Origin: Bacteroidota bacterium
GTDB lineage: Bacteria; Bacteroidota; Bacteroidia; Bacteroidales; CAYTAU01
Assembly (NCBI GenBank): GCA_043826845.1
Contig: JBDRPR010000197.1
Location: forward strand, 1 to 33,259
Reading direction: 5' to 3'
Length of the DNA: 33,259 nucleotides
The notes under the pieces were generated by a model. The model made no database searches, had not been told where the DNA came from, and worked only from the letters and a program-made list of their open reading frames with translations. Position 1 is the first letter of the stretch. Each line of letters starts with the position of its first letter. This document shows, piece after piece, positions 6,200 to 24,300 of the stretch. A program made the position numbers and the translations under genes.

Positions 6200-6217
6200 C
6201 TATTAAAAATAAATTTT

Positions 6218-6721
6218 ATGAATGACAAGAAAGAATTTCCCTTGAAAAAGGTTTGTATCATATGCGCTAAAGGAGCAATCGAGGATGTATATGCCTCCCT
6301 GGTGATGACAAATGGTGCAGTAATGGAAGGTATTGAGGCAAAATTGTTTTTTACATTTTTTGGTCTTGATGCAATTACAAAAAAGCAAATGAAAAAACTG
6401 AAAACTGGAACAGTTGGAAATCCTGCTATGAGAATGCCCGGGAATGTACCATTCCCGACATTGCTTGGGGCTCTCCCTTTCGTTGAAATGGGTGTGTCTG
6501 CAATGATGAAAAGCCAGATGGCAAAACTCGATATCCCGCCAGTTGATGAATTCCTGGAAATGATTACCGCCGGAGGTGGTGAAATATATGCCTGTAAATT
6601 AGCAATGGATATGTTCAAATTGAAAAAAGAAGACCTGAGCGAACATGTTAGTGATGTCCTGACTATTGGTGATTTTTACGGAATGTGTGGAGGCGAAGGT
6701 ACTCAGATTATTTTCACCTGA
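6218..6721 (+). CDS. DsrE/DsrF-like (COG2210-type) sulfur-transfer protein
   Basis: KKVCIICAKGAIEDVYASLVMTNGAVMEGIEAKLFFTFFGLDAI and GGEIYACKLAMDMFKLKKEDL match the DsrE-like 'peroxiredoxin family' pattern, including the conserved YAC cysteine. Confidence 0.8.
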   Translation: MNDKKEFPLKKVCIICAKGAIEDVYASLVMTNGAVMEGIEAKLFFTFFGLDAITKKQMKKLKTGTVGNPAMRMPGNVPFPTLLGALPFVEMGVSAMMKSQMAKLDIPPVDEFLEMITAGGGEIYACKLAMDMFKLKKEDLSEHVSDVLTIGDFYGMCGGEGTQIIFT

Positions 6722-6850: not shown

Positions 6851-6884
6851 CAGAAGTAAGTTGATACATTCAATAAAGTTAAAA

Positions 6885-9039: not shown

Positions 9040-9295
9040 CATATTACAATGATCTACCAGATTCACATAAAGCAATTATATCGCAATCTCAAAAACAGAG
9101 ACGGTTTTTGATCCTTACAGTCAATTCATTATTATTCTTATTTTTAAATAATTAAAATTTGTTAATTATATATCTGCTATTCGCAGAACTGTATATAATT
9201 AAGATAGTGGATTTACTAAACAAAATTCAATTTGTTTAATATCAGTGATGGCATATACAAAAGTTTTTAATTTTTAACTTTTAATTTTTAATATT

Positions 9296-11353
9296 ATGGT
9301 TACCGAACAACTTATTAATCCAAAAAGCATTGTTGTAATTGGGGGATCCAACACGGTTTCCAAACCGGGTGGCAAAGTCCTGTTCAATTTGAAAGATGGC
9401 CACTTTAAGGGGAACCTATATGTAGTTAATCCGAAAGAACCCGAAGTGCAAGGATTAAAAGCATTTGCAGATATCCGTGAACTACCTGAAGTTGATCTCG
9501 CGATATTGGCAATCGCAGCAAAATATTGTATAGAAACCGTTGAGGTTCTTGTAAAACAAAAAGGAACAAAAGCTTTCATCATTTTGTCAGCCGGTTTTAG
9601 CGAAGAAAATGAAGAAGGTGCTAAAATAGAAAAGCAAATTGTTGAGATTATTAATTCTGTCAATGGTTCCTTGATTGGCCCTAATTGTATAGGTTTCCTG
9701 AATCCCAATTATAGCGGTATTTTTACCACACCTATACCTAAACTTGATCCGATGGGATGTGATTTTATTTCCGGTTCAGGTGCTACTGCTGTATTTATTA
9801 TGGAATCAGGTATTCCCAAGGGTTTGACATTTTCAAGTGTTTATTCTGTTGGAAATTCGGCACAAATGGGAGTTGAGGAAGTCTTGAAATACATGGATGA
9901 GAGCTTTGATCCTGCCCGCAGTTCAAAAGTAAAATTACTGTATGTGGAAAATGTAAAAGACCCTGTCATGCTTTTAAAACATGCTTCTTCATTGATTCGC
10001 AAAGGTTGCCGAATTGCAGCAATAAAGTCCGGCTCATCAGAAGCCGGTAGCCGTGCTGCTTCATCGCACACAGGAGCACTGGCCTCCCCCGATGTGGCAG
10101 TTGACGCTTTATTCCGTAAAGCAGGAATTGTAAGATGTTACACAAGAGACGAACTTACAACTGTGGCTTCGGTATTTATGCATAAAGAACTTAAAGGAAA
10201 AAATATTGCAATTATTACTCATGCAGGCGGACCAGCAGTTATGCTTACCGATGCTTTGTCGAACGGCGGACTTGATGTCCCTCACATCGAAGGACCAAAA
10301 GCAAAAGAACTTCTTGAAAATTTATTTCCCGGATCTTCTGTAGCAAATCCTATAGATTTTCTTGCTACCGGAACTGCAGAGCAATTAGGAAAGATCATTG
10401 ATTCATGTGAAAAGGATTTTGATAACATCAATGCGATGATAGTGATATTTGGAAGTCCTGGATTATTTGATGTTTATGATGTTTACAGACTACTTGACGA
10501 AAAAATGAAAACCTGTAGAAAACCTGTTTTCCCTGTATTGCCATCAATTATTAATGCTGAAAAAGAAATTGCAGATTTTCTTTCAAAAGGAAGAATAAAC
10601 TTTCCTGAAGAAGGTTCGTTAGGTAATGCTTTGACAAAAATATTTTATACATCAAAACCTGCTCCTGAAAAAATTGAATTACCAGAAATAGATACAGACA
10701 GGATTCGTAGTGTGATAAACAATTCTCAGAATGGATATCTGTCGCCTGATGCTGTTCAGATATTGCTTGATTCAGCAGGGATACCAAGGGCAGGAGAGGC
10801 TGTTGTTAATACAAAGGACGATGCATTGAAAGTTGCAGAAAAATTAGGATACCCTGTTGTAATGAAAGTGGTTGGGCCTGTTCATAAATCAGATGTTGGA
10901 GGAGTTGTTCTTGATGTTAAAGACGCTTCTACAGTTGGAAATGAATTCGATAGGATGATTAAAATAAAAGATACAACTGCAATCCTTATTCAGCCAATGC
11001 TTTCCGGTATTGAATTATTTGCTGGTGCAAAAAAAGATGAAAAATTTGGACATATGGTACTTTGTGGGTTAGGCGGGATATTTATAGAAGTTCTGAAAGA
11101 TGTGAATTCAGGCCTTGCTCCGCTCACAAAGGATGAAGCTTTAAAGATGATACGTTCCTTAAAAAGTTATGGTATCATTAAAGGAGCCAGAGGAAAGGAA
11201 GGTGTAAACGAAGAAATATTTACTGATATTGTTTTTCGTTTATCTGCACTTGTTACAGTTGCTCCCGAAATATTTGAAATGGATTTGAATCCTTTGTTAG
11301 GGAAGAAAGATAAAGTTGTTGCCGTGGATGCAAGGATACGTATTGAAAAATAA
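9296..11353 (+). CDS. ADP-forming acyl-CoA synthetase (acetate--CoA ligase family, fused alpha/beta)
   Basis: CoA-binding N-terminus (NPKSIVVIGGSN), a phosphohistidine loop (SSHTGALAS) and a C-terminal ATP-grasp (GYPVVMKVVGPVHKSDVGGVVLDV). Confidence 0.85.
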   Translation: MVTEQLINPKSIVVIGGSNTVSKPGGKVLFNLKDGHFKGNLYVVNPKEPEVQGLKAFADIRELPEVDLAILAIAAKYCIETVEVLVKQKGTKAFIILSAGFSEENEEGAKIEKQIVEIINSVNGSLIGPNCIGFLNPNYSGIFTTPIPKLDPMGCDFISGSGATAVFIMESGIPKGLTFSSVYSVGNSAQMGVEEVLKYMDESFDPARSSKVKLLYVENVKDPVMLLKHASSLIRKGCRIAAIKSGSSEAGSRAASSHTGALASPDVAVDALFRKAGIVRCYTRDELTTVASVFMHKELKGKNIAIITHAGGPAVMLTDALSNGGLDVPHIEGPKAKELLENLFPGSSVANPIDFLATGTAEQLGKIIDSCEKDFDNINAMIVIFGSPGLFDVYDVYRLLDEKMKTCRKPVFPVLPSIINAEKEIADFLSKGRINFPEEGSLGNALTKIFYTSKPAPEKIELPEIDTDRIRSVINNSQNGYLSPDAVQILLDSAGIPRAGEAVVNTKDDALKVAEKLGYPVVMKVVGPVHKSDVGGVVLDVKDASTVGNEFDRMIKIKDTTAILIQPMLSGIELFAGAKKDEKFGHMVLCGLGGIFIEVLKDVNSGLAPLTKDEALKMIRSLKSYGIIKGARGKEGVNEEIFTDIVFRLSALVTVAPEIFEMDLNPLLGKKDKVVAVDARIRIEK

Positions 11354-11381: not shown

Positions 11382-13889
11382 ATGGCACGTTTTAATGAGA
11401 TTGTAGAATCAATACCAGGTAGTAAATATATTTTACAGGGCAACGAGGCTTTTGCACTTGGAGTTATTCATGCAGGTTACCATGCTGCCGATGGATATCC
11501 TGGAACGCCTAGTACTGAGGTAATTGATAAATCTTTAAAATATGTTCAGGATAAAATTACAGTTGGCTGGTCAGTTAATGAAGCTGTTGCTGTGGGTGTT
11601 GCAATTGGACATTCTATTGCAGGTTCTGATACAGTGGTTACAATGAAGATTCCCGGCGTTTTCCAGGCAGGCGATCCTATTACTACTTCTGCTTTTTACA
11701 CAGCAGACGCAGGAGCATTGGTTATTTATGCAGCAACAGACTATATTCCCTCAAGTACTCAGCATGTTATTGATTCAAGATATTTTTTCAGTTCTTCACG
11801 AATACCTGTAATTGAACCAAGAAATCATCAGGAAATGTACGAAACAGCATGGATTGCTGCCGATATAAGCAGACAATTCAAAACTCCGGTAGTCATTCTA
11901 GCTTCAGGAATTTTAGCACATTCAGAAGGTCTTGTAATTACAAAAGAACCCAGAAAAATTGAACGACGCCCACTCCCTGAAAAACTTCATGCATGGATGT
12001 TGATGCCGGGAATTGCCCGTCAGAATTATAATAAAGCAACACAGGAACGTATTCCTCAAATTAGTGAATGGCTCGAAGATTCACATCTTATTTCCGAAGA
12101 AGAAGGAAGTGAAGACTGGGGCATTATCCTTTGTGGAGAAAGTGATATTATTGCAAGGGAGGCATTAAAAAACATTAAGAAAAAACCTTCTATACTTTCT
12201 CTTGGAATGACTTACCCATTACCAAAAGATAGAATTATAAAATTTGCTACAGGCATTAAAGGAAAAATATTCGTTATTGAAGATGGAGATCGATATCTCG
12301 AAAATCAAATCCGGCTTTTATCTATCCCTGTTATTGGCAAAGTAGAAAACAGCATTATTACTGACTGGACACCGGAAATGATCATCGAACAATTATCAAA
12401 ACATATTGATGTAAATTATAAAGTAAAAAAACAGGAAATTAATATTAAATCTGTCACCAGACCTCCATCTATTTGCCCCGGATGTCCTTACAGAGCATTT
12501 GCATTATCTGTAGATAAATTAAAAAAGAAGAAGAAAATTTATGCAGCATTTGGAGACATTGGATGCTCGACACTTTTATTCTTCCTTAACTCTTTAGATA
12601 CCGTTTGTTGTATGGGCGCTTCTGATTCCCTGCGACAGGGTTTTGTATTATCAAGGCCGGAATATGCTTCTAAAACCATTAGTATTATTGGTGATTCATG
12701 CGAATGCCATACAGGTCTTGATTCGACAAGAAATGCCATTTTCAGGCATACTCCTGGTATCAAAGTGATTCTTGACAATTCAATTACTGCGATGACAGGT
12801 GGACAACCTGCTCCAACCAGTAAAGTGAACCTGGCTGGTATTCCCAATATTTTTAATCTAAAACGTGCTGTTGAAGCAGAAGGTGGAAGAATGGTAGTTG
12901 TGGATTCATATAACTTAAAAGAAGTTGAAAATGCTCTTGTTGAATCTTTGGAAGAGGCTGAAAAAGGAATATTTACAACAATGATTCTGGAAGGTCAGTG
13001 CATTCAGGAGGTTGAAAATATAAAGAAAATCCGAAAAATTTCCCGTAATTATGATCTTTGTAAAAGATGTATGCGCTGCAATGTTTGTCCTGGGATTGAA
13101 TTTGATGCCGAAAAAAAACCAAACTTTACAAATCTTTGTACATTTTGCGGTGGAAGTACTCCAGTGTGTATGCAGCGTTGCCCTTTTGATGCAATAATCT
13201 ATGACGAGAATGCTACTGAAAAAATAAGTCCACCTACATTTGAAAAAGTCGGAGAAATAGAAATTCCGGTTACGGAAAAAGAAAAGTTGCCTGAATCACT
13301 AAGATTAGCAATAAGGGGTATTGGCGGACAAGGAAATTTATTCTTTGGTAAAGTTCTTTCAGAAGTTGTTTTAAGAACACCGTACGCAGAATCAAATATT
13401 GTAAAGGGCGATACTCATGGAATGGCTCAACTTGGCGGACCTGTCATTTCAACATTCAGTTGCGGTACTGTTTATTCTCCGGTATTGGCACCAGGTTCAG
13501 CAGATGTATTAATTGTAATGGAAGTTAGCGAAGTACTTCGCCCGGGATTCCTCGAACTTTTAAAACCAGACGGGACTATACTGTTCAATAATTTTTCGGT
13601 ATTACCAGTAGCGATAAAAAGGGAAGATTATCCCGATACAAATAATATTTTCGATGCGTTAAAAGAATATAGTCTGATCAAAATTGATGCAAACAAAATT
13701 GCTTACGGACTTGGTGATGTAAACGGGAAAACAGCGAATGTGGTTGTGCTTGGCTTGTTATCAACAATTGTTCCGTTCAACAGTATTCCGGAAAAAGTAT
13801 GGCTTAACGCATTGATGGCAATTTCACCGAATGATTTTATAAAAGCAACTAACAAATTGTCATTTGAGGCAGGCAGAAAACAGAATTAA
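11382..13889 (+). CDS. iorAB: Indolepyruvate/arylpyruvate:ferredoxin oxidoreductase, IorA-IorB fusion
   Basis: IorA-like N-terminus (GNEAFALGVIHAGYHAADGYPGTPSTEV). TPP-type motifs (GDIGCSTL, GDSCECHTGLDS). Two Cys clusters (CKRCMRCNVCPG, CTFCGGSTPVCMQRCPFD). The last ~190 aa (LAIRGIGGQGNLFFGKVLSE...GDTHGMAQLGGPV) look like IorB/gamma subunits, all in one uninterrupted ORF. Confidence 0.8.
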   Translation: MARFNEIVESIPGSKYILQGNEAFALGVIHAGYHAADGYPGTPSTEVIDKSLKYVQDKITVGWSVNEAVAVGVAIGHSIAGSDTVVTMKIPGVFQAGDPITTSAFYTADAGALVIYAATDYIPSSTQHVIDSRYFFSSSRIPVIEPRNHQEMYETAWIAADISRQFKTPVVILASGILAHSEGLVITKEPRKIERRPLPEKLHAWMLMPGIARQNYNKATQERIPQISEWLEDSHLISEEEGSEDWGIILCGESDIIAREALKNIKKKPSILSLGMTYPLPKDRIIKFATGIKGKIFVIEDGDRYLENQIRLLSIPVIGKVENSIITDWTPEMIIEQLSKHIDVNYKVKKQEINIKSVTRPPSICPGCPYRAFALSVDKLKKKKKIYAAFGDIGCSTLLFFLNSLDTVCCMGASDSLRQGFVLSRPEYASKTISIIGDSCECHTGLDSTRNAIFRHTPGIKVILDNSITAMTGGQPAPTSKVNLAGIPNIFNLKRAVEAEGGRMVVVDSYNLKEVENALVESLEEAEKGIFTTMILEGQCIQEVENIKKIRKISRNYDLCKRCMRCNVCPGIEFDAEKKPNFTNLCTFCGGSTPVCMQRCPFDAIIYDENATEKISPPTFEKVGEIEIPVTEKEKLPESLRLAIRGIGGQGNLFFGKVLSEVVLRTPYAESNIVKGDTHGMAQLGGPVISTFSCGTVYSPVLAPGSADVLIVMEVSEVLRPGFLELLKPDGTILFNNFSVLPVAIKREDYPDTNNIFDALKEYSLIKIDANKIAYGLGDVNGKTANVVVLGLLSTIVPFNSIPEKVWLNALMAISPNDFIKATNKLSFEAGRKQN

Positions 13890-13935
13890 TTATAAATTTT
13901 TTTTCATAAATATAATATTTGAAAAGTAAAAAATT

Positions 13936-15243
13936 ATGGAAACGCCAATTAAAAAAGAGTTTGTCGAACAGGCAATTAAAGAAAGTGGCTTGAAAGATGT
14001 AGGTCGTGCTTCGATCAGAGAATTGAAGTGGCTGATCAACAGGATAGAAAAATTAAGTGATACACTATTTATCAGAATGGAAATGGGTGTTCCCGGACTC
14101 CCTGCTCCAAGGATTGCTATTGAAGCAGAAAAAGCTGCATTGGATGCAGGCGTAGCATCCCTATATCCCGATCTTGACGGTTTACCTGCATTGAAAACAG
14201 AAGTTTCACGATTTGTAAAAAACTTTCTTAATGTTGATGTAACACCTCGCTCTTGTATTCCAACGGCCGGCAGTATCAATGCGGCATATGCTACATTGAT
14301 GGTGGCAGGAAGACGGGATGTAAAAAAGGATACTGTTCTGTTTATTGATCCGGGATTTCCTGTACATAAACAACTTGTTAAAATGATTGGTTTAAAACAG
14401 ACAGCTTTTGATGTATATAATTTCCGTGGCGAAAAACTGAGAGATAAATTAGAATCGATTCTTGAAAAAAGAAATATTTCTGTAATTTTATATTCCAATC
14501 CGAACAATCCTTCATGGATTTGTTTTAATGACGAAGAACTCGCTATAATAGCTGAACTTGCAGTGAAGTATGATGTTATTATTGCTGAAGATTTAGCTTA
14601 TTTTGCTATGGATTTCCGTAAAGATCTTTCGGTACCAGGTCAGCCACCATATCAACCTTCTATTGCGAAATTTATGGATAATTATGTGCTGCTCATTTCT
14701 GCATCCAAATCATTCAGCTATGCTGGACAACGTATTGCTATGATGGTAATTTCAGATAAATTATTCGAATCCAGTTATCCTGATCTCACACGTTTCTACT
14801 CATATCCCGATTTTGGGCATAGCATTGTTCACGGAACGGTATATACAACGACCGCAGGTGCATCACATTCTGCTCAATACGGCATTGCCGCCATGCTGAA
14901 AGCTGTTAATGACGGCACCTACAATTTTGTTGAAGCTATCAGCGAATATGGTGAAAGAGCAAAAATTCTGAAAAAAATGTTAATTAATAACGGATTTAAT
15001 ATTGTTTATGATAAAGACATTGATCAGCCGATTGGGGATGGTTTTTATTTTACGATTTCATATCCAGGGCTTTCAGGCGAGGATTTGCTCCTTGAATTAT
15101 TAGATTATGGAATAAGCGCCATATCTCTTTCAATTACCGGAAGCGAAAGAACTGAAGGTTTGCGTGCATGTGTGTCACTTATCCAACGAAATATGTTTGA
15201 AGAACTGGAGGACAGATTAAAAAAGTTCAATAAAAATCATTAA
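13936..15243 (+). CDS. PLP-dependent aminotransferase (class I/II)
   Basis: YSNPNNPSW and the Schiff-base lysine motif SASKSFSYAGQRIA. 435 aa. Confidence 0.85.
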   Translation: METPIKKEFVEQAIKESGLKDVGRASIRELKWLINRIEKLSDTLFIRMEMGVPGLPAPRIAIEAEKAALDAGVASLYPDLDGLPALKTEVSRFVKNFLNVDVTPRSCIPTAGSINAAYATLMVAGRRDVKKDTVLFIDPGFPVHKQLVKMIGLKQTAFDVYNFRGEKLRDKLESILEKRNISVILYSNPNNPSWICFNDEELAIIAELAVKYDVIIAEDLAYFAMDFRKDLSVPGQPPYQPSIAKFMDNYVLLISASKSFSYAGQRIAMMVISDKLFESSYPDLTRFYSYPDFGHSIVHGTVYTTTAGASHSAQYGIAAMLKAVNDGTYNFVEAISEYGERAKILKKMLINNGFNIVYDKDIDQPIGDGFYFTISYPGLSGEDLLLELLDYGISAISLSITGSERTEGLRACVSLIQRNMFEELEDRLKKFNKNH

Positions 15244-15262
15244 AAATATTTCCATAGCAAAA

Positions 15263-17728
15263 ATGAATAATAACGAGACCATAAAAGAAAGAGAAATTAA
15301 AGGCGTCCCATCCACCTTTCGGGTTGAAAAAAGATATTCCGAATTACTGAAACATGAACCTTACATCGATTCGGAACGGGCAGTTTTATATACCGATTAT
15401 ATCAGGAAACATTCGGATGATGATAATTATCTGAAAGCCGGTGGAGCATTAAAACATGTTTTTTCTAATCTTACTGCAAAAATTTGGGAAGATGAATTAT
15501 TAGTTGGTAATATTTCACGATATTTCAAGGGAACACAAGTATATCCTGAATATGAAGCATGGATGCTCGATGGATTTAAAAAAATAAACCGTGAAGAAGA
15601 ACGCTACATTGAAGGAACACTTCAGAAGAAAAAAGATGACAGACTTGGCATATATTTAATCAAACCTTCTGATAAAGAACAAATACTTGAGGTTGCAAAG
15701 TGCTGGGAAAAAACAAATTGGAGAATACTTTCTGAAAAAGTTCTCAGAGAAACAAAAAGTGATTTCACCCTTGTAGAAAAATGGATGCAACAACTAGTAT
15801 TTCTGCGGTTCATGTTCGATGTGCCGGAAGGAAGGGTGATTGTTGATTATCAAAAAATAATTGATGAAGGTGTAGATGGCTTGATATCATCTGTTGACAA
15901 AAAACTTTCCGGACTCTTAAATAATAGTTCAAAAGAAAAAACCGACAAGTATTATTTTTATTGCGGGATAAAACTTGCGCTTGAAGGAGTGATAAATTTT
16001 GCAGAAAATCATGCAAAAGAAGCAGAACGTCTTGCTGTTGATTGTGCTGATAAAAAACGCAGAGATGAATTATTAGAAATAGCACGGATTTGCAGAAAAG
16101 TCCCACGTAAATCTGCTGATACTTTTCGCGAAGCAATGCAATCGTTCTGGTTTGTGCATGTATGTCTTTTTATTGAACTGAACGGACGCGGGATTTCGCC
16201 AGGAAGGTTTGATCAGTACATGTACCGGCCTTTCAAAAATGATATTTCTTCAGGCAAGTTAACCAATAATAATGCATTGGAATTATTGGAATTGATGCGC
16301 ATAAAATGTGCAGAGATTACACGGGCTCACGCCACATTTACCGAGGCCTATCTTGGCGGAAGTGTTTATCAGAATTTAACTTTAGGTGGTGTTGATAAAT
16401 ACGGAAATGCCTGTAACAACGAGCTTTCAGAACTAGTTCTGCAATCAGGAATAAACGTCAAGACCTGGCAACCCACCATCTCAGTTCGCTGGACTGAAAA
16501 TATGAATGAAGAATTCAAACATAAAGTTGTTGATTGCATAAAAGCAGGGTCAGGATATCCTGCATTATTTAATGATGAAATTGCAATAGAACGATTTATA
16601 AAAAACACCAAAGCGTCTGTTGAAGATGCCCGTGACTGGGCTCCATGTGGTTGTGTTGATATGCAGATATGTGGAAAACGTATGCCTATGTATGCTGTTC
16701 CTCATACGAACAACCTAAAGATTTTTGAGTTGGTGATGAACAATGGAATTAATCCAGTTACAGGAGATAAACTTATTAATTGTAGTGTTGATATTGAAAA
16801 AGCAACTTATAATGAGATATTAAACGAATTTAAAAAAGCAACCGCATATATAATTAAAAAAGAAGAAGAATACTGGAATTCTATTATGATTGTCCATAAC
16901 GATATGGGCCTTGTACATCCTTTTATGACTTCTTTGCTTGAAGACTGTATTGAAAAAGGAATAGATTCTTATAAAGGTGGGTGTAGATACAGCGATTCTG
17001 CATATGTGATTTCATGCGGAATGGTGAACGTGGCTAACAGTCTTGCAGCTATTAAGAAAAATGTCTTTGATGAAAAAACCCTTACAATAAAAGATATTAG
17101 GGCTGCAATTAAAGATAATTTCGTTGGTCATGAAAAACTCAGAAAAAGTTTACTTGATGCTCCAAAATATGGAAATGACAACGATTATGTAGATAATATT
17201 CTTGCGGATCTTTATATCAATTGGTCAGAGGTAGCACAAAGTACTAAAAACTGGGTAGGTGAATCATGGCAACCCAGCACACTTTCAGTTACCACTCAGG
17301 TTCTTCATGGGAAAGCATGTGGTGCTTCACCTGATGGACGTTCTGCCGGCGAGTATGTTGGAGATGGCGCAATATCTGCTTTTCCGGGAACTGACACCTG
17401 TGGACCTACCAGCCTTATAAAATCTGCAGTAAAAATAAATGCGAAAGAACTTCAGTCAACTTTATTCAATATTAAATTCAATCCTGTTGCTATTGAAGGA
17501 AAAGCCGGTGCTGATAAGTTCATTAAGTTGAATGAAACCTATTTCAAAATGGGAGGTTATCAGGTGCAATACAACATTGTCGATAGCAAGATGCTTTCTG
17601 ATGCACAGAAAAATCCTGAAAAATATTCAGACCTCATGGTCAGGGTCGCTGGTTTCACAGCCCGCTTCATTGACCTTGGACCAGATGTTCAAAGACAAAT
17701 TATTGAAAGAACTCAGTTCGATGAATAA
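15263..17728 (+). CDS. Glycyl radical enzyme (PFL2/eliminase-decarboxylase-like), substrate unknown
   Basis: VYQNLTLGGVD, thiyl loop APCGCVDMQ (Cys464 by my codon count), APKYGNDNDYVD, GASPDGRSAG, and the glycyl-radical motif MVRVAGFTARF (Gly797). Confidence 0.9.
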   Translation: MNNNETIKEREIKGVPSTFRVEKRYSELLKHEPYIDSERAVLYTDYIRKHSDDDNYLKAGGALKHVFSNLTAKIWEDELLVGNISRYFKGTQVYPEYEAWMLDGFKKINREEERYIEGTLQKKKDDRLGIYLIKPSDKEQILEVAKCWEKTNWRILSEKVLRETKSDFTLVEKWMQQLVFLRFMFDVPEGRVIVDYQKIIDEGVDGLISSVDKKLSGLLNNSSKEKTDKYYFYCGIKLALEGVINFAENHAKEAERLAVDCADKKRRDELLEIARICRKVPRKSADTFREAMQSFWFVHVCLFIELNGRGISPGRFDQYMYRPFKNDISSGKLTNNNALELLELMRIKCAEITRAHATFTEAYLGGSVYQNLTLGGVDKYGNACNNELSELVLQSGINVKTWQPTISVRWTENMNEEFKHKVVDCIKAGSGYPALFNDEIAIERFIKNTKASVEDARDWAPCGCVDMQICGKRMPMYAVPHTNNLKIFELVMNNGINPVTGDKLINCSVDIEKATYNEILNEFKKATAYIIKKEEEYWNSIMIVHNDMGLVHPFMTSLLEDCIEKGIDSYKGGCRYSDSAYVISCGMVNVANSLAAIKKNVFDEKTLTIKDIRAAIKDNFVGHEKLRKSLLDAPKYGNDNDYVDNILADLYINWSEVAQSTKNWVGESWQPSTLSVTTQVLHGKACGASPDGRSAGEYVGDGAISAFPGTDTCGPTSLIKSAVKINAKELQSTLFNIKFNPVAIEGKAGADKFIKLNETYFKMGGYQVQYNIVDSKMLSDAQKNPEKYSDLMVRVAGFTARFIDLGPDVQRQIIERTQFDE

Positions 17729-17767
17729 ACACATTTTTTAAGAAAGAATAATTTGTTATTATTTTTG

Positions 17768-17775
17768 TATATTTG
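17768..17775 (+). promoter_or_regulatory. Candidate internal -7 promoter box (TATATTTG) upstream of the AOR genes
   Basis: Exact TAnnTTTG match, 30 nt upstream of the ATG at 17805, in the 76-nt gap after the GRE gene. Confidence 0.35.
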
Positions 17776-17804
17776 ATACTTTAAATTTTTTAGAAAAAAT
17801 CTAT

Positions 17805-18344
17805 ATGCAACAAAATTCACAAGCAAAATTAATTGTCATTGATCCCGACAAATGTACAGGTTGCCATAGTTGCGAAATGGCTTGTTCTATTAGACATTTT
17901 AATGTATGCGGAACAAACTATTCGCGAATCAGGGTACATGAATTCCGGGATGTAAACACGTTTATTCCGGTGATGTGTCAGGCATGCGAAGATCCGATTT
18001 GCGTTAAAATATGCCCTGTAAATGCACGAATGAGGCTCGAAAGCGGTGCCATGGTCACTGATGATCAAAAGTGCATTGGATGTAAAGCGTGTATTCACGC
18101 ATGTCCTTTCGGAGCATCAGTTATGAATCCTGTTACAGGAAAAACCATGAGTTGTGATCTTTGTAATGATGATGAACTTGGTCCCTGGTGCGTAAAAGCA
18201 TGTACTATGCAAAAAGCGTTAAATTATATAAGAGCCAGTGATGCCGCTAAAGCACGAGGAAGAGAATGGGCAAAAAACCTGATGAAAGACTATAAAGTTC
18301 CGGGTACTGAAGAAGAGGATTTTGGATTTAGTTTTAATGTTTAA
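17805..18344 (+). CDS. Four-cluster [4Fe-4S] electron-transfer subunit (AorA-like / DmsB-type ferredoxin)
   Basis: Four Cys groups: CTGCHSCEMAC, CQACEDPICVKICP, CIGCKACIHACP and CDLC...WCVKAC. Confidence 0.8.
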   Translation: MQQNSQAKLIVIDPDKCTGCHSCEMACSIRHFNVCGTNYSRIRVHEFRDVNTFIPVMCQACEDPICVKICPVNARMRLESGAMVTDDQKCIGCKACIHACPFGASVMNPVTGKTMSCDLCNDDELGPWCVKACTMQKALNYIRASDAAKARGREWAKNLMKDYKVPGTEEEDFGFSFNV

Positions 18345-18396
18345 CCAATCAATTTCGCCTTCGATGACTTGGAGAAAAGCGAAACCCAAATATAAA

Positions 18397-18455
18397 AAAC
18401 AACAACCATTATGTTTAAAAATAAACCACAAATAAAATAGTAAGGAGATACAATT
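18397..18455 (+). promoter_or_regulatory. Leader element copy A: (AAC)n tract, mini-uORF and AGGAGA SD upstream of the AOR gene
   Basis: aacaacaacc-attatgt...aaacca...aataaaat...aggaga-ta-caattATGA. The same ordered blocks occur at 21764-21811. Confidence 0.4.
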
Positions 18456-20441
18456 ATGAATGGCTGTACAGGACAAAGACTGCGAATAAATCTGACAAAT
18501 AAGACATACGAGATAGAAAAATTATCTGTAGAGTATTATAAAAAATGGATAGGCGGCAGAGGTATGAATTCAGAAGTAGTGTATCATGAAACAAAACAAG
18601 GTATGGATCCTTTCGATCCGCAAAATCCTCTTTGTTTTGGCTCAGGGCCCTTGGTGGGTTCATTTGCTCCGCTTTCAGGAAGAACAACTATCAGCACACG
18701 ATCACCGATGACATGTTCAAATATGGGAACTGATATTCACGGTCACGGTGATACCAACATGGGCGGTGGTTGGGGGCCTATGATGAAATATGCCGGTTAT
18801 GACCAGATTATTGTTAAAGGTAAATCAGAAAAACCTGTTTATGTTTTTGTTGACGATGGTAAAATTGAATTTCGTGATGCAAGCCACTTATGGGGAATTG
18901 CAACAAAAAAAGCTACCATGAAAATTCTTGAAGAGTTGGGAGATTCTGATATCCGCGTAGCGCTGATTGGGCCTGCCGGAGAAAAACTAGTCCGGTTTGC
19001 ATGCGTGATGAATTCTTTCAGTGCTTCCGGCGGAAGAACTGGTATGGGAGCTGTAATGGGTTCAAAAAATTTGAAAGCCATTGCTGTGAGAGGAACAAAT
19101 CCTATTAAAATAGCACATCCTGAAGAGTTTATGAAAGCTTCATGGACACTGCGCGATAAAATTCATGAATCTCCTTCGGCAATACGTAGGAGAGCAGAAG
19201 GATCGCTTGATCTTTTCGACGTAGGTAATGCCATTGGTATCAATGCACATAAAAATTGTTCCACAGGCTACATGAAAGATATTGAAACTTTATATGGTGG
19301 TATGGAATGGGCTAAAGAATTTCTTTTTAGAAGAAAAGCCTGTTGGTCGTGCCCGGTAGGATGCGGAAGATATACATATATCAAAGAAGGTAAATATGCG
19401 GGATTCAACTGCGGAGGTCCTGAAATGGAAAGTCTTTGTAACCTAGGACCAAGAATTGATTCTGTTGACATAGCTGGTGTTACAGTTATGTGTGGTATTG
19501 TTAACGAACTTGGAATGGACAGCGTTTCTGCCGGAGCTGCTTTATCATGGACAATGGAAGCTTTTGAGAAAGGTTATATTACTGAAAAGGAAACAGGGGG
19601 AATAAGGCTTGAATGGGGCGATGTTGATACTTCAATTAAAGTTCTTGATATGATAGCCAAACGTGAAGGCTTTGGAGATATTCTTGCGGAAGGAAACATT
19701 CGTGTTGCTGAAAAGTTAGGGGTTGGATTGGATATTGTTCCTCATTGCCGCGGACTGGAGCATATCAGCGTTGATCCTAGAATTGCTTTAGGATTCAGTC
19801 TTGGATATGCAATGTCCACCAGAGGTTCAGATCATCTTAAAAATTATTCCTGTCTTGAATTTCCTGGCTGTGCAAAAAGCCGTTCATATCAGGTTGATGA
19901 AGTTTTAAAACCAGAAACAGCAAAAAAATTCTGGGATAACTTTCCTTCGCAAATGACCAAGATTGATACCAAACCTGAACTATGCAACTGGTCTGAAAAA
20001 AATAAATGTATCGCTGATGCTGTTGGATGTTGTTGTCAGGCAATAGGTTCATGGGGTGGTGCTGGAACATGGAAAGAGGCATATGCTCCATTACTTCGTC
20101 TTGCCACAGGTTTTGATTTTACCGATGAAGAAATATTCAAATCTGCTGAAAGAATTATTAATATTGAAAGGGCACATTGGCTAAGGGACGGAAGTGCAGT
20201 TCAGGACGACATACATATTAATAGGTACTTTGACGAACCTGTTGCAGGCGGTCCTCATAAAGGATTGAAGCTTGACAGGAAAGAATGGGCCTGGGCACAA
20301 CAGGAATATTATTCACTTAAAGAATGGGACGAGGATGGTTTTATTACTCCGCAAAAAGCTACAGAATTAGATATTCCTGAAATTATACCTGACATGAAAA
20401 AAGGGAAAGAAATTTATATGAAATGGTTGGCAAAAAAATAG
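18456..20441 (+). CDS. aor: Tungsten/molybdopterin aldehyde:ferredoxin oxidoreductase family catalytic subunit (AorB-like)
   Basis: Typical AOR N-terminus (GQRLRINLTNKTYEIEKLSVEYYKKWIGGRGMN), a Cys-containing FeS region (CWSCPVGCGR) and 661 aa length. An AAGGAG SD lies 8 nt upstream. Confidence 0.85.
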   Translation: MNGCTGQRLRINLTNKTYEIEKLSVEYYKKWIGGRGMNSEVVYHETKQGMDPFDPQNPLCFGSGPLVGSFAPLSGRTTISTRSPMTCSNMGTDIHGHGDTNMGGGWGPMMKYAGYDQIIVKGKSEKPVYVFVDDGKIEFRDASHLWGIATKKATMKILEELGDSDIRVALIGPAGEKLVRFACVMNSFSASGGRTGMGAVMGSKNLKAIAVRGTNPIKIAHPEEFMKASWTLRDKIHESPSAIRRRAEGSLDLFDVGNAIGINAHKNCSTGYMKDIETLYGGMEWAKEFLFRRKACWSCPVGCGRYTYIKEGKYAGFNCGGPEMESLCNLGPRIDSVDIAGVTVMCGIVNELGMDSVSAGAALSWTMEAFEKGYITEKETGGIRLEWGDVDTSIKVLDMIAKREGFGDILAEGNIRVAEKLGVGLDIVPHCRGLEHISVDPRIALGFSLGYAMSTRGSDHLKNYSCLEFPGCAKSRSYQVDEVLKPETAKKFWDNFPSQMTKIDTKPELCNWSEKNKCIADAVGCCCQAIGSWGGAGTWKEAYAPLLRLATGFDFTDEEIFKSAERIINIERAHWLRDGSAVQDDIHINRYFDEPVAGGPHKGLKLDRKEWAWAQQEYYSLKEWDEDGFITPQKATELDIPEIIPDMKKGKEIYMKWLAKK

Positions 20442-20448
20442 TTCAACC

Positions 20449-21720
20449 ATGAAAATTGTTATTATTGGAAACGGAATCGCCGGCAATTATATTGCTTTTT
20501 CTCTGAGGCAATTCAATTATCCATGCGACATTACTATTATATCTAATGAAAAATTTCCTGAATACGATCCATGTTCTTTGCCGTATTTTATCGGAGGCGA
20601 AATTTCAAGAGATGCAATTTTTAAAAGACAAATAAGCGACTATAAAATAAATCAAATAAATCTGATTTCCGGCAACGGCGCTGTTTCAATTAACTCCATA
20701 ACTAAAACCATAATCCTTGAAAAAGGAGACATGATCGAATACGATAAACTTATACTTGCATACGGCGGAAAACTTTTTATTCCAAATATCGAAGGAATAG
20801 ATATAAAAGGTGTTTTTAGCTGCAAACAACTACACCATGCTGACAAACTTAGTGAATCTGATGGCAAAGTAGCTGTTGTTATTGGTTCCGGCGCAATTGG
20901 AATTGAGGTTGCGGAAGCTCTGAAAAGAAAAGGATATAATGTTAGTATCATCGAACTGCTTAGTTGGATCATACCTGCTATGTTCGACAAACCAGCCGCT
21001 GAAATACTTAAAAAAGCACTTAATAATTACGGGATAAATGTTTTTACAGGTGAAAAGGTAATCAGTATTGATGGCACTAATACCGTAAAGAGTGTCACAA
21101 CTGATAAACGCACTATATCGTGCGATACGGTTGTAGTTGCAACAGGTGTAGTAACTGATAAATCTCTTGCTGAATCAGCTGGAATATCTGTGGGAAGGGC
21201 AATTATTGTAAACAACAAAATGGAAACTAATATTAATGATATTTTTGCCTGCGGAGATTGTGCTGAAGCTTTTGATGCTTTCTCAGGAGAAAAATGCAAT
21301 TATCAGTTAAAACATAATGCTATAGAACAAGCTGAGATTATTGCACAGAATATTTCCGGTAAAGATCTTAATTATGTCGGTGCTTATCCCTTTGCAAGAG
21401 CACATTTTTTTAAAACTCATTCGTCATCCTTTGGGAAAACTGTGAGTTCTTTTAAAAACATGGACGACGTTGAAGTAATTGATAGAGAAGAAAATAATGA
21501 ATATCTCAGGGTGATTCTGAAATCCGGAAAAATTGTTGGAGCACAGGCAATAGGAAAATATGCTGATAACATGGGATTATTTTTAAGTGCAATGTGGCAG
21601 AAAAATGATATTCATGAAATAAAAAATAACTGGCAGAAAATTTTACAGATTGATTCCCCCTATCCCTGGACATACCGTAAATTAGGTAATTTACTGGGAT
21701 TCGGACAAAGTATTTCGTAA
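20449..21720 (+). CDS. FAD/NAD(P)-dependent pyridine nucleotide-disulfide oxidoreductase (AorC-like; Nox/CoADR-type with Cys42)
   Basis: MKIVIIGNGIAGNYIA Rossmann motif, a second dinucleotide fold VAVVIGSGAIGIEVAEAL, and YDPCSLPYFIGGEI with the Cys at residue 42, as in NADH oxidase/CoA-disulfide reductases. It starts 7 nt after the AOR gene. Confidence 0.75.
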   Translation: MKIVIIGNGIAGNYIAFSLRQFNYPCDITIISNEKFPEYDPCSLPYFIGGEISRDAIFKRQISDYKINQINLISGNGAVSINSITKTIILEKGDMIEYDKLILAYGGKLFIPNIEGIDIKGVFSCKQLHHADKLSESDGKVAVVIGSGAIGIEVAEALKRKGYNVSIIELLSWIIPAMFDKPAAEILKKALNNYGINVFTGEKVISIDGTNTVKSVTTDKRTISCDTVVVATGVVTDKSLAESAGISVGRAIIVNNKMETNINDIFACGDCAEAFDAFSGEKCNYQLKHNAIEQAEIIAQNISGKDLNYVGAYPFARAHFFKTHSSSFGKTVSSFKNMDDVEVIDREENNEYLRVILKSGKIVGAQAIGKYADNMGLFLSAMWQKNDIHEIKNNWQKILQIDSPYPWTYRKLGNLLGFGQSIS

Positions 21721-21763
21721 ATATTGAATTTTGTAAACAGAAATAAATAGTTAATATTAATAA

Positions 21764-21811
21764 TAACAACAAACAACCTATGTCAAACCAATAAAATCAG
21801 GAGAATCAATT
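21764..21811 (+). promoter_or_regulatory. Leader element copy B: (AAC)n tract, mini-uORF and AGGAGA SD upstream of the amidohydrolase-like gene
   Basis: aacaacaaacaacc-tatgt-c-aaacca-ataaaat-c-aggaga-at-caattATGA. The 3' 17 nt are 15/17 identical to copy A. Confidence 0.4.
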
Positions 21812-22867
21812 ATGAGCAAAGCTAGCGAAGAATGGGCAAAAAGACCTTATGGCAGAGTCATCACAGAAGAAGAAATGAAAAAACGTTCTCATCCTGCATG
21901 GCCATATATTTATTTTAACCCGGGTACACCCGTTGAACCTGAAAAGGTGGAAAGAATTCTGAAAGGTGTTATTGATGTCCATATTCATGGTGCACCACTT
22001 GGAGGCTGGCTTGCCGGCAGACCAACAATAGTTGAAACATGCATCGAAGCAAGCGAAGCAGGGATGAAAGCTCTTGTTTTCAAAGATCATAATACAATGG
22101 TGAATAACTGTGCTATTATTGTACAGGATTTTCTTGAAAGGATGGCAAAAGAAAAAGCCAAAGCCGGAATTGATTTTACACCAGTAGAAGTTTATGGTGG
22201 AATTACACTGAACGAGTCTGTTGGTGGAATGAATCTGAAAGCTGTTAAAACAGCTCTTGATTATGGAAGATGTAAAGAGATATGGTTGCCTTCACTTGAT
22301 GCAAAACATCAACGTCAGGCGATGGGTGCCCAAGGCGGAATATCTGTTACCTCAGGAGCCGACGAACTCACAAAGGAGATGATAGATATACTTGATCTGC
22401 TTGCTCAGTATAATAATAACTCAAAAGGCGAAAGAGTAGCTTTATCAACTTGTCATGTTTCAAATGAAGAAAAAGTTGCTGTTTTAAAATATGTGAAGAA
22501 AAAAAACATGGATGTGAAAATTCTGCTTGATCATGTAACTCAGGAAATGACTATTTTAAATCCAGATGAAGCAAAAGAAATGATAGACTTAGGCGGATAC
22601 CTCGAATTTGCTGAATGTTCATGTGTGCCTTGGGCTGGGATGCAGGACTGGATTATTGCCTTCGATTATTCTTTTGCTCTGATTAAAGAACTTATTAAAG
22701 AAAAAGGTCCTGAACAACTCGTTTTGATTACTGATGCAGGCCAACCAGGTAATAATCCTGTGCCAGGATGGAAAATGTTTATTAAAACATTATTAGCACA
22801 AGGAGTAAGTGAATCGGAAATTAATGTGATGGCAAAAGAAATACCGGCGAAGTTAATATATGGGTAA
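21812..22867 (+). CDS. Uncharacterised amidohydrolase/TIM-barrel metal-hydrolase-fold protein
   Basis: N-terminal HxH motif (VIDVHIHGAP), later His residues (CHVSNEE, LLDHVTQE) and a late Asp strand (LVLITDAGQPG), a pattern typical of the amidohydrolase superfamily. I did not recognise the specific family. Confidence 0.5.
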   Translation: MSKASEEWAKRPYGRVITEEEMKKRSHPAWPYIYFNPGTPVEPEKVERILKGVIDVHIHGAPLGGWLAGRPTIVETCIEASEAGMKALVFKDHNTMVNNCAIIVQDFLERMAKEKAKAGIDFTPVEVYGGITLNESVGGMNLKAVKTALDYGRCKEIWLPSLDAKHQRQAMGAQGGISVTSGADELTKEMIDILDLLAQYNNNSKGERVALSTCHVSNEEKVAVLKYVKKKNMDVKILLDHVTQEMTILNPDEAKEMIDLGGYLEFAECSCVPWAGMQDWIIAFDYSFALIKELIKEKGPEQLVLITDAGQPGNNPVPGWKMFIKTLLAQGVSESEINVMAKEIPAKLIYG

Positions 22868-23762
22868 TTCTGGTTTTATTACTGAAATTAAACGTTTCGC
22901 CACTCATGATGGACCGGGTATCAGAACTGCTGTTTTTTTAAAAGGCTGTCCGCTTGATTGTAAATGGTGTTCGAATCCTGAATCAAAGGCATTAAATCCC
23001 CAACTTTATTTTATTTCAAAACGGTGCAAAAATTTCGGTAATTGTATTAGCGTGTGTCCTGAAAAAATTATTAATCCTGATGTTAATAATAAAATAAACA
23101 GAGGTAAATGCACCAATTGTATGCTTTGTGCTGAAGAATGCATCAATGGTGCTTTTCAGATAGTCGGGAAAGAGTTTTCAGCAGATGAATTATTTAAAGA
23201 AATTGTAAAAGATGTACCTTTTTATGGTAGCGATGGTGGTTTGACATTAAGTGGAGGAGAGCCATTGTTTCAATTTGAATTTTCTCTTTCGATTTTAAAA
23301 AAATGCAAAGATGCTGGAATTTCAACAGTGGTAGATACTTCAGGCTACGCTAATTCAGAAATAGTAAAAGACATTATTAAATACACAGATTTGTTTCTAT
23401 ATGATATCAAACACATGGATTCTGAAAAACACATTACAGGAACAGGTGTGAATAATAAAAATATTTTAGAAAATGCAGCTGAAATTTCTTCAAAAACAAA
23501 TATCAGAATATCATTACCATTGATTCCAGGATTCAATGATGACAAAAAAAACATCGAAGAGACAGCAAGATTTGCAAATTCTTTAAAAATAAAATTTATT
23601 GATATTAATCCTTTTCATAATTTAGGAGCCGATAAATATAATTATCTTGGAATAGCAAATCCATCTCAATTATATGAACCAATAAAGAAAGAAGATATAA
23701 TTAGAATAAAAGAAATAATTGAAAAATTCGGTATTGCAATAACTATAGGCAGAATGATGTAG
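22860..23762 (+). CDS. Glycyl-radical enzyme activating protein (radical SAM, with auxiliary ferredoxin-like clusters)
   Basis: THDGPGIRTAVFLKGCPLDCKWCSNPES (CX3CX2C). Two extra clusters (CKNFGNCISVCP, CTNCMLCAEEC). SAM-binding GGEPL. The ATG overlaps the upstream stop by 8 nt. Confidence 0.9.
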   Translation: MGNSGFITEIKRFATHDGPGIRTAVFLKGCPLDCKWCSNPESKALNPQLYFISKRCKNFGNCISVCPEKIINPDVNNKINRGKCTNCMLCAEECINGAFQIVGKEFSADELFKEIVKDVPFYGSDGGLTLSGGEPLFQFEFSLSILKKCKDAGISTVVDTSGYANSEIVKDIIKYTDLFLYDIKHMDSEKHITGTGVNNKNILENAAEISSKTNIRISLPLIPGFNDDKKNIEETARFANSLKIKFIDINPFHNLGADKYNYLGIANPSQLYEPIKKEDIIRIKEIIEKFGIAITIGRMM

Positions 23763-23790: not shown

Positions 23791-24300
23791 ATGCAATTGC
23801 AATTAATACAAAGTAAGATTTATGAAGCAAGAGGGCAAAAAGTAATGCTTGATTTTGATCTTGCTGAATTATATGAAACTGAAACAAAAAGATTAAAAGA
23901 AGCTGTAAGGCGTAATATTGAACGCTTTCCTTCTGATTTTATGTTTGAACTTACAAGAGATGAATATAATTCTCTAAGGACGCAATTTGCGACCTTAGAA
24001 AAAGGCAGGAGTAAATACAGTAAATTCAATCCTTTTGCTTTTACTAAACAAGGTGTTGCTATGCTTGCAAGTGTTTTAAACAGCTTTAAAGCCATGCAGG
24101 TAAATATTTCAATCGTGCGTGCATTTGTTATGGTACGACAATATGCCCTTACTCATAAAGATTTAACAGAAAAATTAAAGAAACTGGAAGACAAGTACAA
24201 CAGGCAATTTTCCGATGTTTATGAAGCGCTGAATTATCTGCTCGAAAAAGACAAAATATTAATTGAACAAAAGCAACGTAGACCTATAGGTTATAAATGA
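23791..24300 (+). CDS. ORF6N-domain (KilA-N-related) DNA-binding protein
   Basis: IYEARGQKVMLDFDLAELYETETKRLKEAVRRNIERFPSDFMFELT...FAFTKQGVAMLASVL matches the ORF6N domain pattern common in Bacteroidota, as I recall it. Confidence 0.75.
   Translation: MQLQLIQSKIYEARGQKVMLDFDLAELYETETKRLKEAVRRNIERFPSDFMFELTRDEYNSLRTQFATLEKGRSKYSKFNPFAFTKQGVAMLASVLNSFKAMQVNISIVRAFVMVRQYALTHKDLTEKLKKLEDKYNRQFSDVYEALNYLLEKDKILIEQKQRRPIGYK

Follow-up and report, generated by a model that had tools for sequence, protein, structure and literature searches.

To our knowledge only four decarboxylases are known among the glycyl radical enzymes (GREs), and both their mechanisms (i.e. Kolbe-type versus hydrogen-atom transfer) and the part played by the residue at Cys+2 (two positions beyond the catalytic cysteine) are still disputed. 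GRE decarboxylases make toluene, p-cresol and skatole, and so bear on gut toxicology, odour and bio-based aromatics. A Kolbe-type mechanism was proposed for HPAD and now also for the indoleacetate decarboxylase IAD, with Glu505 as the proposed proton relay in HPAD. The glutamate of IAD (Glu502), for which the same part is proposed, acts through a water molecule that is held by the backbone of the cysteine loop (PMC13232127). We have analysed a 33,259-nt window (i.e. the whole stretch of DNA under study, read on the forward strand) from contig JBDRPR010000197.1 of a Bacteroidota bacterium (assembly GCA_043826845.1). At 15263-17728 it encodes a GRE that carries aspartate at Cys+2 and lies within a conserved block of genes. 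We read this enzyme, tentatively, as a Kolbe-type decarboxylase of an amino-acid-derived arylacetate-type acid in which the aspartate would serve as proton relay.

A glycyl radical enzyme with aspartate at Cys+2

The GRE open reading frame (ORF) is complete, lies on the forward strand and encodes 821 amino acids, with the Pfam domains PFL-like (540 bits) and Gly_radical (94 bits). Bases 16628-16690 encode ARDWAPCGCVDMQICGKRMPM, within which the codons of the thiyl loop Cys464-Val465-Asp466 occupy 16652-16660 (Cys464 tgt, 16652-16654; Asp466 gat, 16658-16660) and are followed by that of Met467. When compared by phmmer with chains from the PDB, the segment CGCVDMQICGK pairs with CGCVETNLAGK of 8ID1, CGCIEPQVLGK of HplG and VGCVELSIPGR of PflD, and the loop also pairs with GCVEPQKPGK of GDH and GCVEPQKSGR of CutC. 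The catalytic cysteines of GDH, CutC, HplG, PflD, 8ID1 and 8IOF all align to Cys464. Because of these alignments to solved GREs, Cys464 is taken to be the thiyl cysteine, with Asp466 in the position of the glutamate. The radical glycine is Gly797 (codon 17651-17653, +), in the sequence RVAGFTARF that aligns with RVAGYSAQF around the radical glycine of GDH. A first-pass annotation of the window had assigned all three residues in this way, and the alignments bear it out.

An AlphaFold model of the protein, built with 55 homologues, has a pLDDT of 91.8. The predicted structure superimposes on 50 solved GRE chains with TM scores of 0.87-0.92 and has the ten-stranded barrel fold; the best solved match is GDH, both by sequence (432 bits) and by fold. 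The radical glycine motif, the cysteine loop, the barrel fold and a nearby activase gene are all present, and the protein is a member of the GRE superfamily. The sequence is also supported independently, as a contig from a groundwater metagenome matches 12761-22909 without differences at a depth of ~11x. The best explanation is that the ORF encodes a functional, single-subunit GRE, its activity being predicted. No HpdC-like small subunit was found in a scan for cysteine-rich ORFs of 35-130 amino acids between 8 and 27 kb. The sole cysteine-rich ORF of that size in the interval is antisense, inside the gene for a DUF6282 protein, and the gaps that flank the GRE gene are just 19 and 76 bp. The first-pass annotation was therefore correct that a small subunit is absent, but this is not an unusual trait, because IAD, AAD and all the eliminases also lack one.

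The aspartate is a fixed feature of a family. Among the 120 best homologues, which are 56-87% identical, the sequence GC[VIL]D is found in 119, and W459, P461, C462, G463, C464 and D466 are invariant in an alignment of 55 sequences; the fixed C-x-D loop is thus more than a matter of chance. The whole family falls into one cluster at 50% identity, the representative of which scores 1418 bits, while the next cluster (P0121) scores 634 bits with 40% identity. Judged by this gap and by the conserved loop, the family is a sharply separate, uncharacterized GRE subfamily, and the loop does mark a distinct cluster, a question that had been raised for the C-V-D-M sequence. Homologues occur in Bacteroidales, Deltaproteobacteria/Desulfomonilia, Thermoanaerobacterales, Clostridia, Coatesbacteria and the archaeal Nezhaarchaeota and Hecatellales. 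A scan of GTDB species representatives yielded at least seven family loci, all from metagenome-assembled genomes, and metagenomes of groundwater, landfill, activated sludge and the human gut contain the family. A named gut species, Enterocloster aldenensis, encodes the full gene cluster with a GRE that is 66% identical and retains the CVD sequence.

How unusual is aspartate at this position? Across 133 related clusters at 50% identity the residue at Cys+2 is Glu in 83, Asp in 8, Ser in 8, Gln in 7 and something else in 27, so that 38% lack glutamate. Five of the other Asp clusters belong to an AAD-like clade, and the Asp clusters that were scanned match no named NCBIfam equivalog. Glutamate is found in the displayed loops of GDH, two PDHs, CutC, HplG, PflD, 8ID0, 8ID1 and 8IOF, and in that of Escherichia coli YbiW (GCIET). 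However, C-x-E is not the rule of characterized GREs that the first-pass annotation took it to be. PhdB has a C-x-Q loop (Gln484) in which the Q484E substitution is inactive, with Tyr691 and Trp495 as further features, while PFL and BSS have serine at Cys+2 (PMC7079210). AAD has the loop GGCVLHQ (7E7L), i.e. C-x-L with Leu449. The characterized decarboxylases thus have Glu, Glu, Gln and Leu at Cys+2, and PhdB and AAD show that the position is plastic within this group. Given these enzymes, and the 38% of clusters without glutamate, the replacement of Glu by Asp is not by itself a sign of a new reaction class, which had been the suggestion. Nor is the methionine that follows special for not being proline, since IAD has valine there and both HPAD and 8ID1 have threonine. 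The observation that C-x-D was absent from known enzymes does stand: none was seen among the characterized or solved GRE loops inspected (2F3O and 6XS4 not among them), and a term search of a 2026 review of the superfamily did not turn up the word "aspartate".

Placement in the superfamily and proposed chemistry

Among the curated NCBIfam models, that for IAD (NF033718) gives the best score with the GRE at 623 bits, yet this is below its cut-off of 1100. It is followed by PFL2-3 (TIGR01774; 560 bits, cut-off 678), HypD (466), HPAD (NF033715; 465 bits, cut-off 1150) and CutC (430). In a neighbour-joining tree of 39 sequences with 100 bootstraps the family is monophyletic in 100/100, and it joins a superclade (96/100) with a bona fide IAD (P0125, which at 1188 bits exceeds the cut-off of the IAD model), three HPAD-like clusters and five unknown clusters. 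The eliminases lie outside this superclade.

One contact in the putative active site follows the same division. Arg191 (codon 15833-15835, +), in the motif EGRVIVDY, is invariant in the C-x-D family and aligns with Arg226 of IAD, an essential residue that the cryo-EM structure shows stacked on the indole ring (PMC13232127; PMC9248008). The same position is His in GDH (His164) and the PDHs, and Asp216 in CutC. All but one of the superclade members examined carry arginine at this point on beta-strand 1, where the 133 related clusters include 70 with His and 13 with Arg. The combination of Arg at the position of Arg191 with Asp at that of Asp466 was found in this family alone among 139 sequences compared, and to judge from that comparison it is a novel active-site pair. 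Elsewhere in the pocket Ile583 aligns with Leu616 of IAD and with Glu637 of HPAD, and Tyr369 with Phe/Tyr401 of IAD. By alignment rather than superposition, the column of His514 in IAD holds Val479, with His481 two positions further on. Arg309 was considered as a possible carboxylate binder; it falls at or next to Ser344 of HPAD and His281/Ser282 of GDH in a register that is uncertain by 1-3 residues, and was not relied on.

We place the enzyme with the decarboxylases because its best model is that for IAD, because it falls in the superclade, and because Arg191 occupies the position of Arg226. The eliminase framing that had been given to the loop is therefore not retained, as the protein branches with IAD and HPAD and has arginine where the eliminases have His or Asp. 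By alignment and phylogeny the enzyme is IAD/HPAD-like in its ancestry and in one key contact, while by their defining features it is not an IAD, HPAD, PhdB or AAD.

The type of reaction, the class of substrate and the part played by Asp466 are inferred. The product of the activase gene, which lies four genes further downstream at 22860-23762, would put a radical on Gly797, and this would generate a thiyl radical on Cys464. The thiyl radical would remove one electron from the substrate carboxylate in a Kolbe-type step, with loss of CO2 from the substrate. Asp466, probably acting via a bound water molecule, would reprotonate the Cys464 thiolate, and the product radical would then be quenched by the Cys464 thiol. 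The shorter aspartate is mechanistically plausible in this role because the glutamate of IAD also works through a water. The acid could be supplied from an amino acid by way of the 2-oxoacid and the acyl-CoA, with formation of ATP, through the aminotransferase, 2-oxoacid:ferredoxin oxidoreductase and ADP-forming acyl-CoA synthetase of the operon. A second route to the acid would be oxidation of the aldehyde by the tungsten aldehyde oxidoreductase. A link with amino-acid fermentation is suggested because the position of the GRE in an operon with the synthetase, the oxidoreductase and the aminotransferase is fixed in Bacteroidales. In Clostridium scatologenes the HPAD cluster likewise places a GRE decarboxylase among enzymes of the oxidative branch, with a 2-oxoacid:ferredoxin oxidoreductase and ATP-yielding steps (PMC13285125).

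We consider that this proposal has somewhat less than an even chance of being correct, and a number of observations weigh against it. The branching order inside the superclade is unsettled; grouping of the family with clusters P0121, P0123 and P0124 has a bootstrap value of only 22/100. The gene context of the nearest neighbour, P0121, is quite different, comprising a Mo hydroxylase, UbiD and flavoproteins; it is unrelated and gives no help with function. The scores fall far short of the IAD and HPAD cut-offs given above, identity to IAD is ~36%, and Phe517 and Trp392 of the IAD pocket are unmatched (T482 and T360 by alignment, without superposition). An aldehyde oxidoreductase directly after the GRE is the commonest architecture, and this would also fit a GRE that forms an aldehyde. 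The DUF6282 protein and the DHOD-like flavoprotein of the cluster have no role in the simple decarboxylation of an arylacetate. Lastly, no member of the family has been characterized, and the substrate class is inferred.

The operon and its conserved partners

All the genes of the operon lie on the forward strand. The first (9296-11353) encodes a 685-aa ADP-forming acyl-CoA synthetase (ACS) with CoA_binding_2, Succ_CoA_lig and ATP-grasp_5 domains; it scores 312 bits with the NCBIfam model AcCoA-syn-alpha, below the cut-off, and is found at the same position in relatives. Next is a fused alpha+beta 2-oxoacid:ferredoxin oxidoreductase of the IOR type (11382-13889, 835 aa; POR_N, TPP_enzyme_C and POR), with 373 bits to IOR_alpha (TIGR03336) and ~100 bits to IOR_beta, both below the cut-offs. 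The third is a class I/II PLP aminotransferase (13936-15243, 435 aa; Aminotran_1_2), for which the nearest solved structure is the putative aminotransferase 3G0T (513 bits). These three and the GRE gene (15263-17728, 821 aa) are contiguous, with gaps of 19-46 bp.

The GRE gene is followed by three genes that resemble AorABC. The first encodes a poly-[4Fe-4S] ferredoxin-like AorA-like subunit (17805-18344, 179 aa; Fer4_11 and related Pfam domains), which directly follows the GRE in many loci. The second encodes a tungsten-type aldehyde:ferredoxin oxidoreductase (AOR), AorB-like (18456-20441, 661 aa; AFOR_N and AFOR_C), with scores of 374 bits to AOR of Pyrococcus furiosus, 255 to that of Aromatoleum aromaticum (8C0Z) and 193 to BamB; at 193 versus 374 bits, a BamB-like aryl-CoA reductase was ruled out. 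The third is an FAD/NAD(P) oxidoreductase like AorC or PadH (20449-21720, 423 aa; Pyr_redox_2), scoring 228 bits with PadH (NF045765), below the cut-off. An aminotransferase, IOR, ADP-forming ACS and AOR together make up the classical peptide-fermentation set for aromatic amino acids.

Downstream of these is a DUF6282 PTE-like hydrolase (21812-22867, 351 aa; PF19799), the stop of which is overlapped by 8 nt by the start of the GRE-activating radical SAM enzyme (22860-23762, 300 aa; TIGR02494 329 bits, cut-off 174). The activase has the motif CPLDCKWC (CX3CX2C) and two ferredoxin-type cysteine motifs. An FMN protein of the DHOD/DPD fold with two [4Fe-4S] motifs, PreA-like, follows (24413-25690, 425 aa; DHO_dh and Fer4). 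Between the activase and the flavoprotein lies a gene (23791-24300) for a 169-aa ORF6N-domain protein, KilA-N/antirepressor-like, which is probably non-catalytic. L094, the closest relative, has an ORF6N gene in the corresponding place (12061-12609), and the other architectures lack one.

We compared the context of 13 loci with a family GRE and of 65 metagenomic loci centred on DUF6282. DUF6282, activase and flavoprotein form a near-invariant block in the ~65 metagenomic loci, and a family GRE is present in most of those that are long enough. The commonest arrangement is GRE-AorABC-(198-aa gene)-DUF6282-activase-flavoprotein. No DUF6282 gene or close homologue of the flavoprotein was found in ~74 loci of other GRE families, and the conserved block around the family GRE is novel. 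Between the AorC and DUF6282 genes, most AorABC-type clusters encode a conserved protein of ~198 aa without Pfam match (e.g. L001 16783-17379, L003 17815-18411, and at many metagenomic loci); the window lacks it. Some loci (L106 and L150) have a duplicated DUF6282 and/or flavoprotein gene beside a single GRE.

Other arrangements vary around the block. Clostridial genomes, including that of E. aldenensis, have the order DUF6282-activase-flavoprotein-GRE-MFS with a divergent PucR regulator, and E. aldenensis also carries iorAB and two PaaK-like ligases at a distance of 1-7 kb on the upstream side. IOR also adjoins the block in L125 (with a PaaK-like ligase) and L128. The clostridial MFS transporter was considered as an orthologue of that at IAD loci, but the similarity is weak (36 bits). 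Three Bacteroidales-type relatives retain ACS-IOR-aminotransferase-GRE (the record of L094 begins within IOR), while a second ADP-forming ACS and a three-subunit enzyme of the Mo hydroxylase family replace AorABC (L094 6199-9951; JGI loci of P0004 and P0007). For the large subunit of the Mo enzyme the best match is 4-hydroxybenzoyl-CoA reductase alpha, at 530 bits and thus below the cut-off of 995; XdhB gives the medium subunit a higher score than the beta subunit of 4-hydroxybenzoyl-CoA reductase does. Because the function of the Mo enzyme is ambiguous, the argument that it and AorABC are both aldehyde oxidoreductases is positional only, and was set aside. Peptidase genes stand beside two related clusters. 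The archaeal members have GRE and activase only, one of them inside a LivHM/Peripla_BP_6 transporter, and L008 likewise has GRE and activase without the DUF6282 and flavoprotein partners. Unrelated, uncharacterized GRE families (32-33% identical; L036, L037, L046 and L047) also have AOR-family genes a few kb downstream, and pairing of a GRE with a tungsten AOR may be a wider theme.

In the DUF6282 protein His57 is conserved at ≥90% and His59, Lys91, His215, His241 and Asp308 are invariant. In its conserved residues the protein matches the HxH/Lys/His/His/Asp pattern of binuclear PTE-like amidohydrolases, and a metal centre is predicted. Its AlphaFold model (pLDDT 90.7) has PTE-like lactonases, E. 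coli PHP and PTER as the top Foldseek matches, at TM ~0.5; PTER is an N-acetyltaurine amidohydrolase. DUF6282 also occurs without a GRE at the head of clusters in Sedimentibacter hydroxybenzoicus (L090) and in the metagenomic loci L139 and L140, where the neighbouring genes encode the four subunits of a 2-oxoacid:ferredoxin oxidoreductase, a D-2-hydroxyacid dehydrogenase, a phosphotransacylase and two acyl kinases, together with a TRAP transporter. In the flavoprotein, by comparison with DPD (1H7X, 1GT8), Cys671 is replaced by Gly, Asn668 by Asp and Asn609 by Cys, with only Asn736 kept. Since the catalytic cysteine and two ring-binding asparagines are replaced, it is not a pyrimidine or orotate reductase, and assignment as a dihydropyrimidine or dihydroorotate dehydrogenase of a pyrimidine pathway was rejected. 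The DUF6282 protein and the flavoprotein could act on a pathway substrate, or could serve activation (electron supply or removal of a by-product). A literature search on DUF6282, on GRE plus AOR clusters and on GRE plus amidohydrolase plus DHOD found nothing relevant.

No Rfam or tRNA match was found upstream of the operon in a search for riboswitches, other RNA and tRNA, and counts from a promoter and terminator scan were not clearly above those of shuffled sequence. The interval 9252-9300, just before the start of ACS, is AT-rich and of low complexity. Many short contigs of high depth in unrelated DNA and RNA runs match it, apparently as a simple-sequence artefact and not as the sign of a conserved RNA. 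The only metatranscriptome of the same study contained no contig that matched. Directly upstream of the operon (6861-8911) are ResB-like and CcsA-like (Cytochrom_C_asm) genes of system II cytochrome c biogenesis. Before them is a sulfur-relay-like set (3996-6721, +), with an FAD oxidoreductase of 410 aa, a 205-aa protein, a DsrC-like protein of 103 aa and a DsrE/DrsE_2-like protein of 167 aa. Near the Thermoanaerobacterales cluster L003 are genes for a TusA/DsrE fusion and for cysteine desulfurase-like and Se_S_carrier proteins. The presence of sulfur-relay genes near the clusters may be coincidence, or may be tied to supply of sulfur for the tungsten or molybdenum cofactor. At the start of the window (31-3033) is a 1000-aa secreted protein with CotH kinase, beta-helix, lamin-tail and T9SS C-terminal sorting domains, the last of which is indicative of a Bacteroidota host. 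On the other side, at 28180-29901 on the reverse strand, a 573-aa protein combines an N-terminal DnaJ domain with WD40 beta-propeller repeats after it; its neighbours are three ORFs without Pfam match (27465-28121, 29935-30831 and 30839-32176) and an FGE-sulfatase protein (32223-33257).

Alternative reactions and known systems compared

The fixed partners of the GRE raise the possibility, which we regard as real but doubtful, that the subfamily runs an undescribed GRE reaction with two invariant partners, such as conversion of a 2-oxoacid to an aldehyde or a decarboxylation in a lactone/lactam pathway. The Arg191/Asp466 pair would then define a new active-site solution. A degradation pathway for a heterocycle (i.e. 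a lactone or lactam), defined by the invariant partners and including the GRE, is taken on its own unlikely. The flavoprotein would act as reductase on a C=C bond in a cyclic ester or amide, ring opening would fall to the DUF6282 protein and the GRE would decarboxylate or otherwise transform the resulting acid, leaving the aldehyde oxidoreductase and the amino-acid enzymes as lineage-specific add-ons. This would explain why the DUF6282-activase-flavoprotein block is so constant and, in a comparison with 80 other GRE loci, exclusive to this family, and it suits the binuclear amidohydrolase motif pattern and the nearness in fold to PTE-like lactonases and PTER. The PucR-type regulators and MFS transporters of the clostridial clusters, and the three-subunit Mo hydroxylase-family enzyme that stands in for AorABC at some Bacteroidales loci, are also in keeping with it. 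Reductases are paired with cyclic amidohydrolases in DPD with dihydropyrimidinase and in 6-hydroxynicotinate reductase with enamidase, and by analogy DUF6282 and the flavoprotein may follow the same logic. Yet the flavoprotein has neither the catalytic Cys nor the pyrimidine-binding Asn of DPD and DHOD, the archaeal members and L008 manage without the partners, DUF6282 also occurs without a GRE beside a cluster of 2-oxoacid oxidoreductase, phosphotransacylase and kinase genes, and the data name no candidate substrate.

If the GRE were instead a Kolbe-type decarboxylase of a 2-oxoacid, R-CO-COO- would give an acyl radical and CO2, a hydrogen from the Cys464 thiol would yield the aldehyde, and AOR would oxidize this to the acid. 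The order aminotransferase, GRE and AorABC in the window, and the dominance of the architecture in which AorABC directly follows the GRE, are what such a pathway would predict; AorB belongs to the true AOR type and is not BamB-like, the position on the IAD/HPAD branch suits the chemistry of carboxylate oxidation, and DUF6282 is linked to 2-oxoacid metabolism in the Sedimentibacter-type loci. We nevertheless find it distinctly unlikely, for IOR and ACS of the same operon already convert a 2-oxoacid with gain of ATP, TPP enzymes catalyse the same reaction without radical chemistry, no GRE is known to use 2-oxoacids with a single cysteine, and the clostridial clusters have no aldehyde-handling gene. 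That last point applies also to a 1,2-eliminase (dehydratase or lyase) with Asp466 as general base and an aldehyde product oxidized by AorABC, which we judge very unlikely. Although GDH is the top solved match by sequence and by fold, a carboxylate is kept at Cys+2 and the aldehyde oxidoreductase is immediately downstream, the family lies outside the eliminase group in 96/100 bootstraps and has Arg rather than His or Asp on beta-strand 1, its TIGR01774 score of 560 bits is below the cut-off of 678, and GDH, two PDHs, CutC, HplG, two N-methyl-hydroxyproline dehydratases, PflD and YbiW all have Glu. No microcompartment or CoA-acylating aldehyde dehydrogenase genes are found in the context of the GRE gene, and the rest of the operon is an amino-acid oxidation module, with peptidase genes beside relatives. 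Least probable of all, and in our view highly improbable, is a plain IAD (i.e. a skatole synthase), as the automatic JGI annotation names several members. The name is understandable from the best NCBIfam model, from the retention of arginine at the Arg226 position with Ile583 at that of Leu616, from the IOR-type oxidoreductase of the operon and from the MFS transporters of the clostridial clusters, which recall those of IAD clusters. But 623 bits is far below the equivalog cut-off of 1100, the family is a separate clade with ~36% identity to true IAD, the essential Glu502 is Asp, and Phe517, Trp392 and His514 are unmatched. Moreover, the MFS proteins are only distantly related to those of IAD-like loci, and IAD clusters lack DUF6282, the flavoprotein and AOR.

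On the decarboxylase reading that we favour, the family would be a fifth, deep-branching family in the decarboxylase clade, with a natural replacement of Glu by Asp, and with the full cluster of E. aldenensis the function of the Cys+2 residue could be put to the test. The position in the Bacteroidales operon would tie the family to the fermentation of amino acids by uncultured anaerobes of sediment and groundwater. The fixed link with a PTE-like hydrolase, a DHOD-like flavoprotein and often a tungsten AOR points to an undescribed anaerobic pathway.

Of the described systems, IAD of Olsenella scatoligenes and O. uli (NF033718) shares with the enzyme its single subunit, its superclade, an acidic residue at Cys+2 and a ferredoxin-like insert in the activase, together with arginine at Arg226, an aliphatic residue at Leu616 and an aromatic residue at Phe/Tyr401. 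It differs in having the essential Glu502 in place of Asp, in being ~50 residues longer and in its neighbourhood, which for the present enzyme is the DUF6282-activase-flavoprotein block, often with AorABC. HPAD (HpdBC/CsdBC; 2Y8N/2YAJ) is in the same superclade and has arginine at the beta-strand-1 position. In contrast to HPAD, the present enzyme has no gamma subunit and no insertion in the cysteine loop, has Asp in place of Glu505, and has Ile583 where HPAD has the phenol-binding Glu637.

PhdB and AAD resemble it as GRE decarboxylases that lack a small subunit and have a residue other than Glu at Cys+2 (Gln484 and Leu449). Neither has Asp there, and the AAD-like clade lacks the arginine on beta-strand 1. 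AAD (7E7L) belongs to another clade, with 361 bits and 28% identity to the query, while PhdB lies outside the 150 nearest clusters and is set apart by its published loop residue. The eliminases (GDH/PDH, CutC and HypD) are alike in fold (TM 0.90-0.92), in the carboxylate at Cys+2 and in an adjoining gene for aldehyde oxidation. They have Glu rather than Asp, and His164 or Asp216 where this enzyme has Arg191; it lies outside their clade and is not accompanied by microcompartment genes.

AorABC of A. aromaticum (8C0Z) oxidizes phenylacetaldehyde in the anaerobic degradation of phenylalanine. It has the same composition as the products of 17805-21720, i.e. a poly-ferredoxin, a tungsten subunit of the AOR family and an FAD/NAD subunit, although AorB of the window is nearer to AOR of P. 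furiosus than to 8C0Z.

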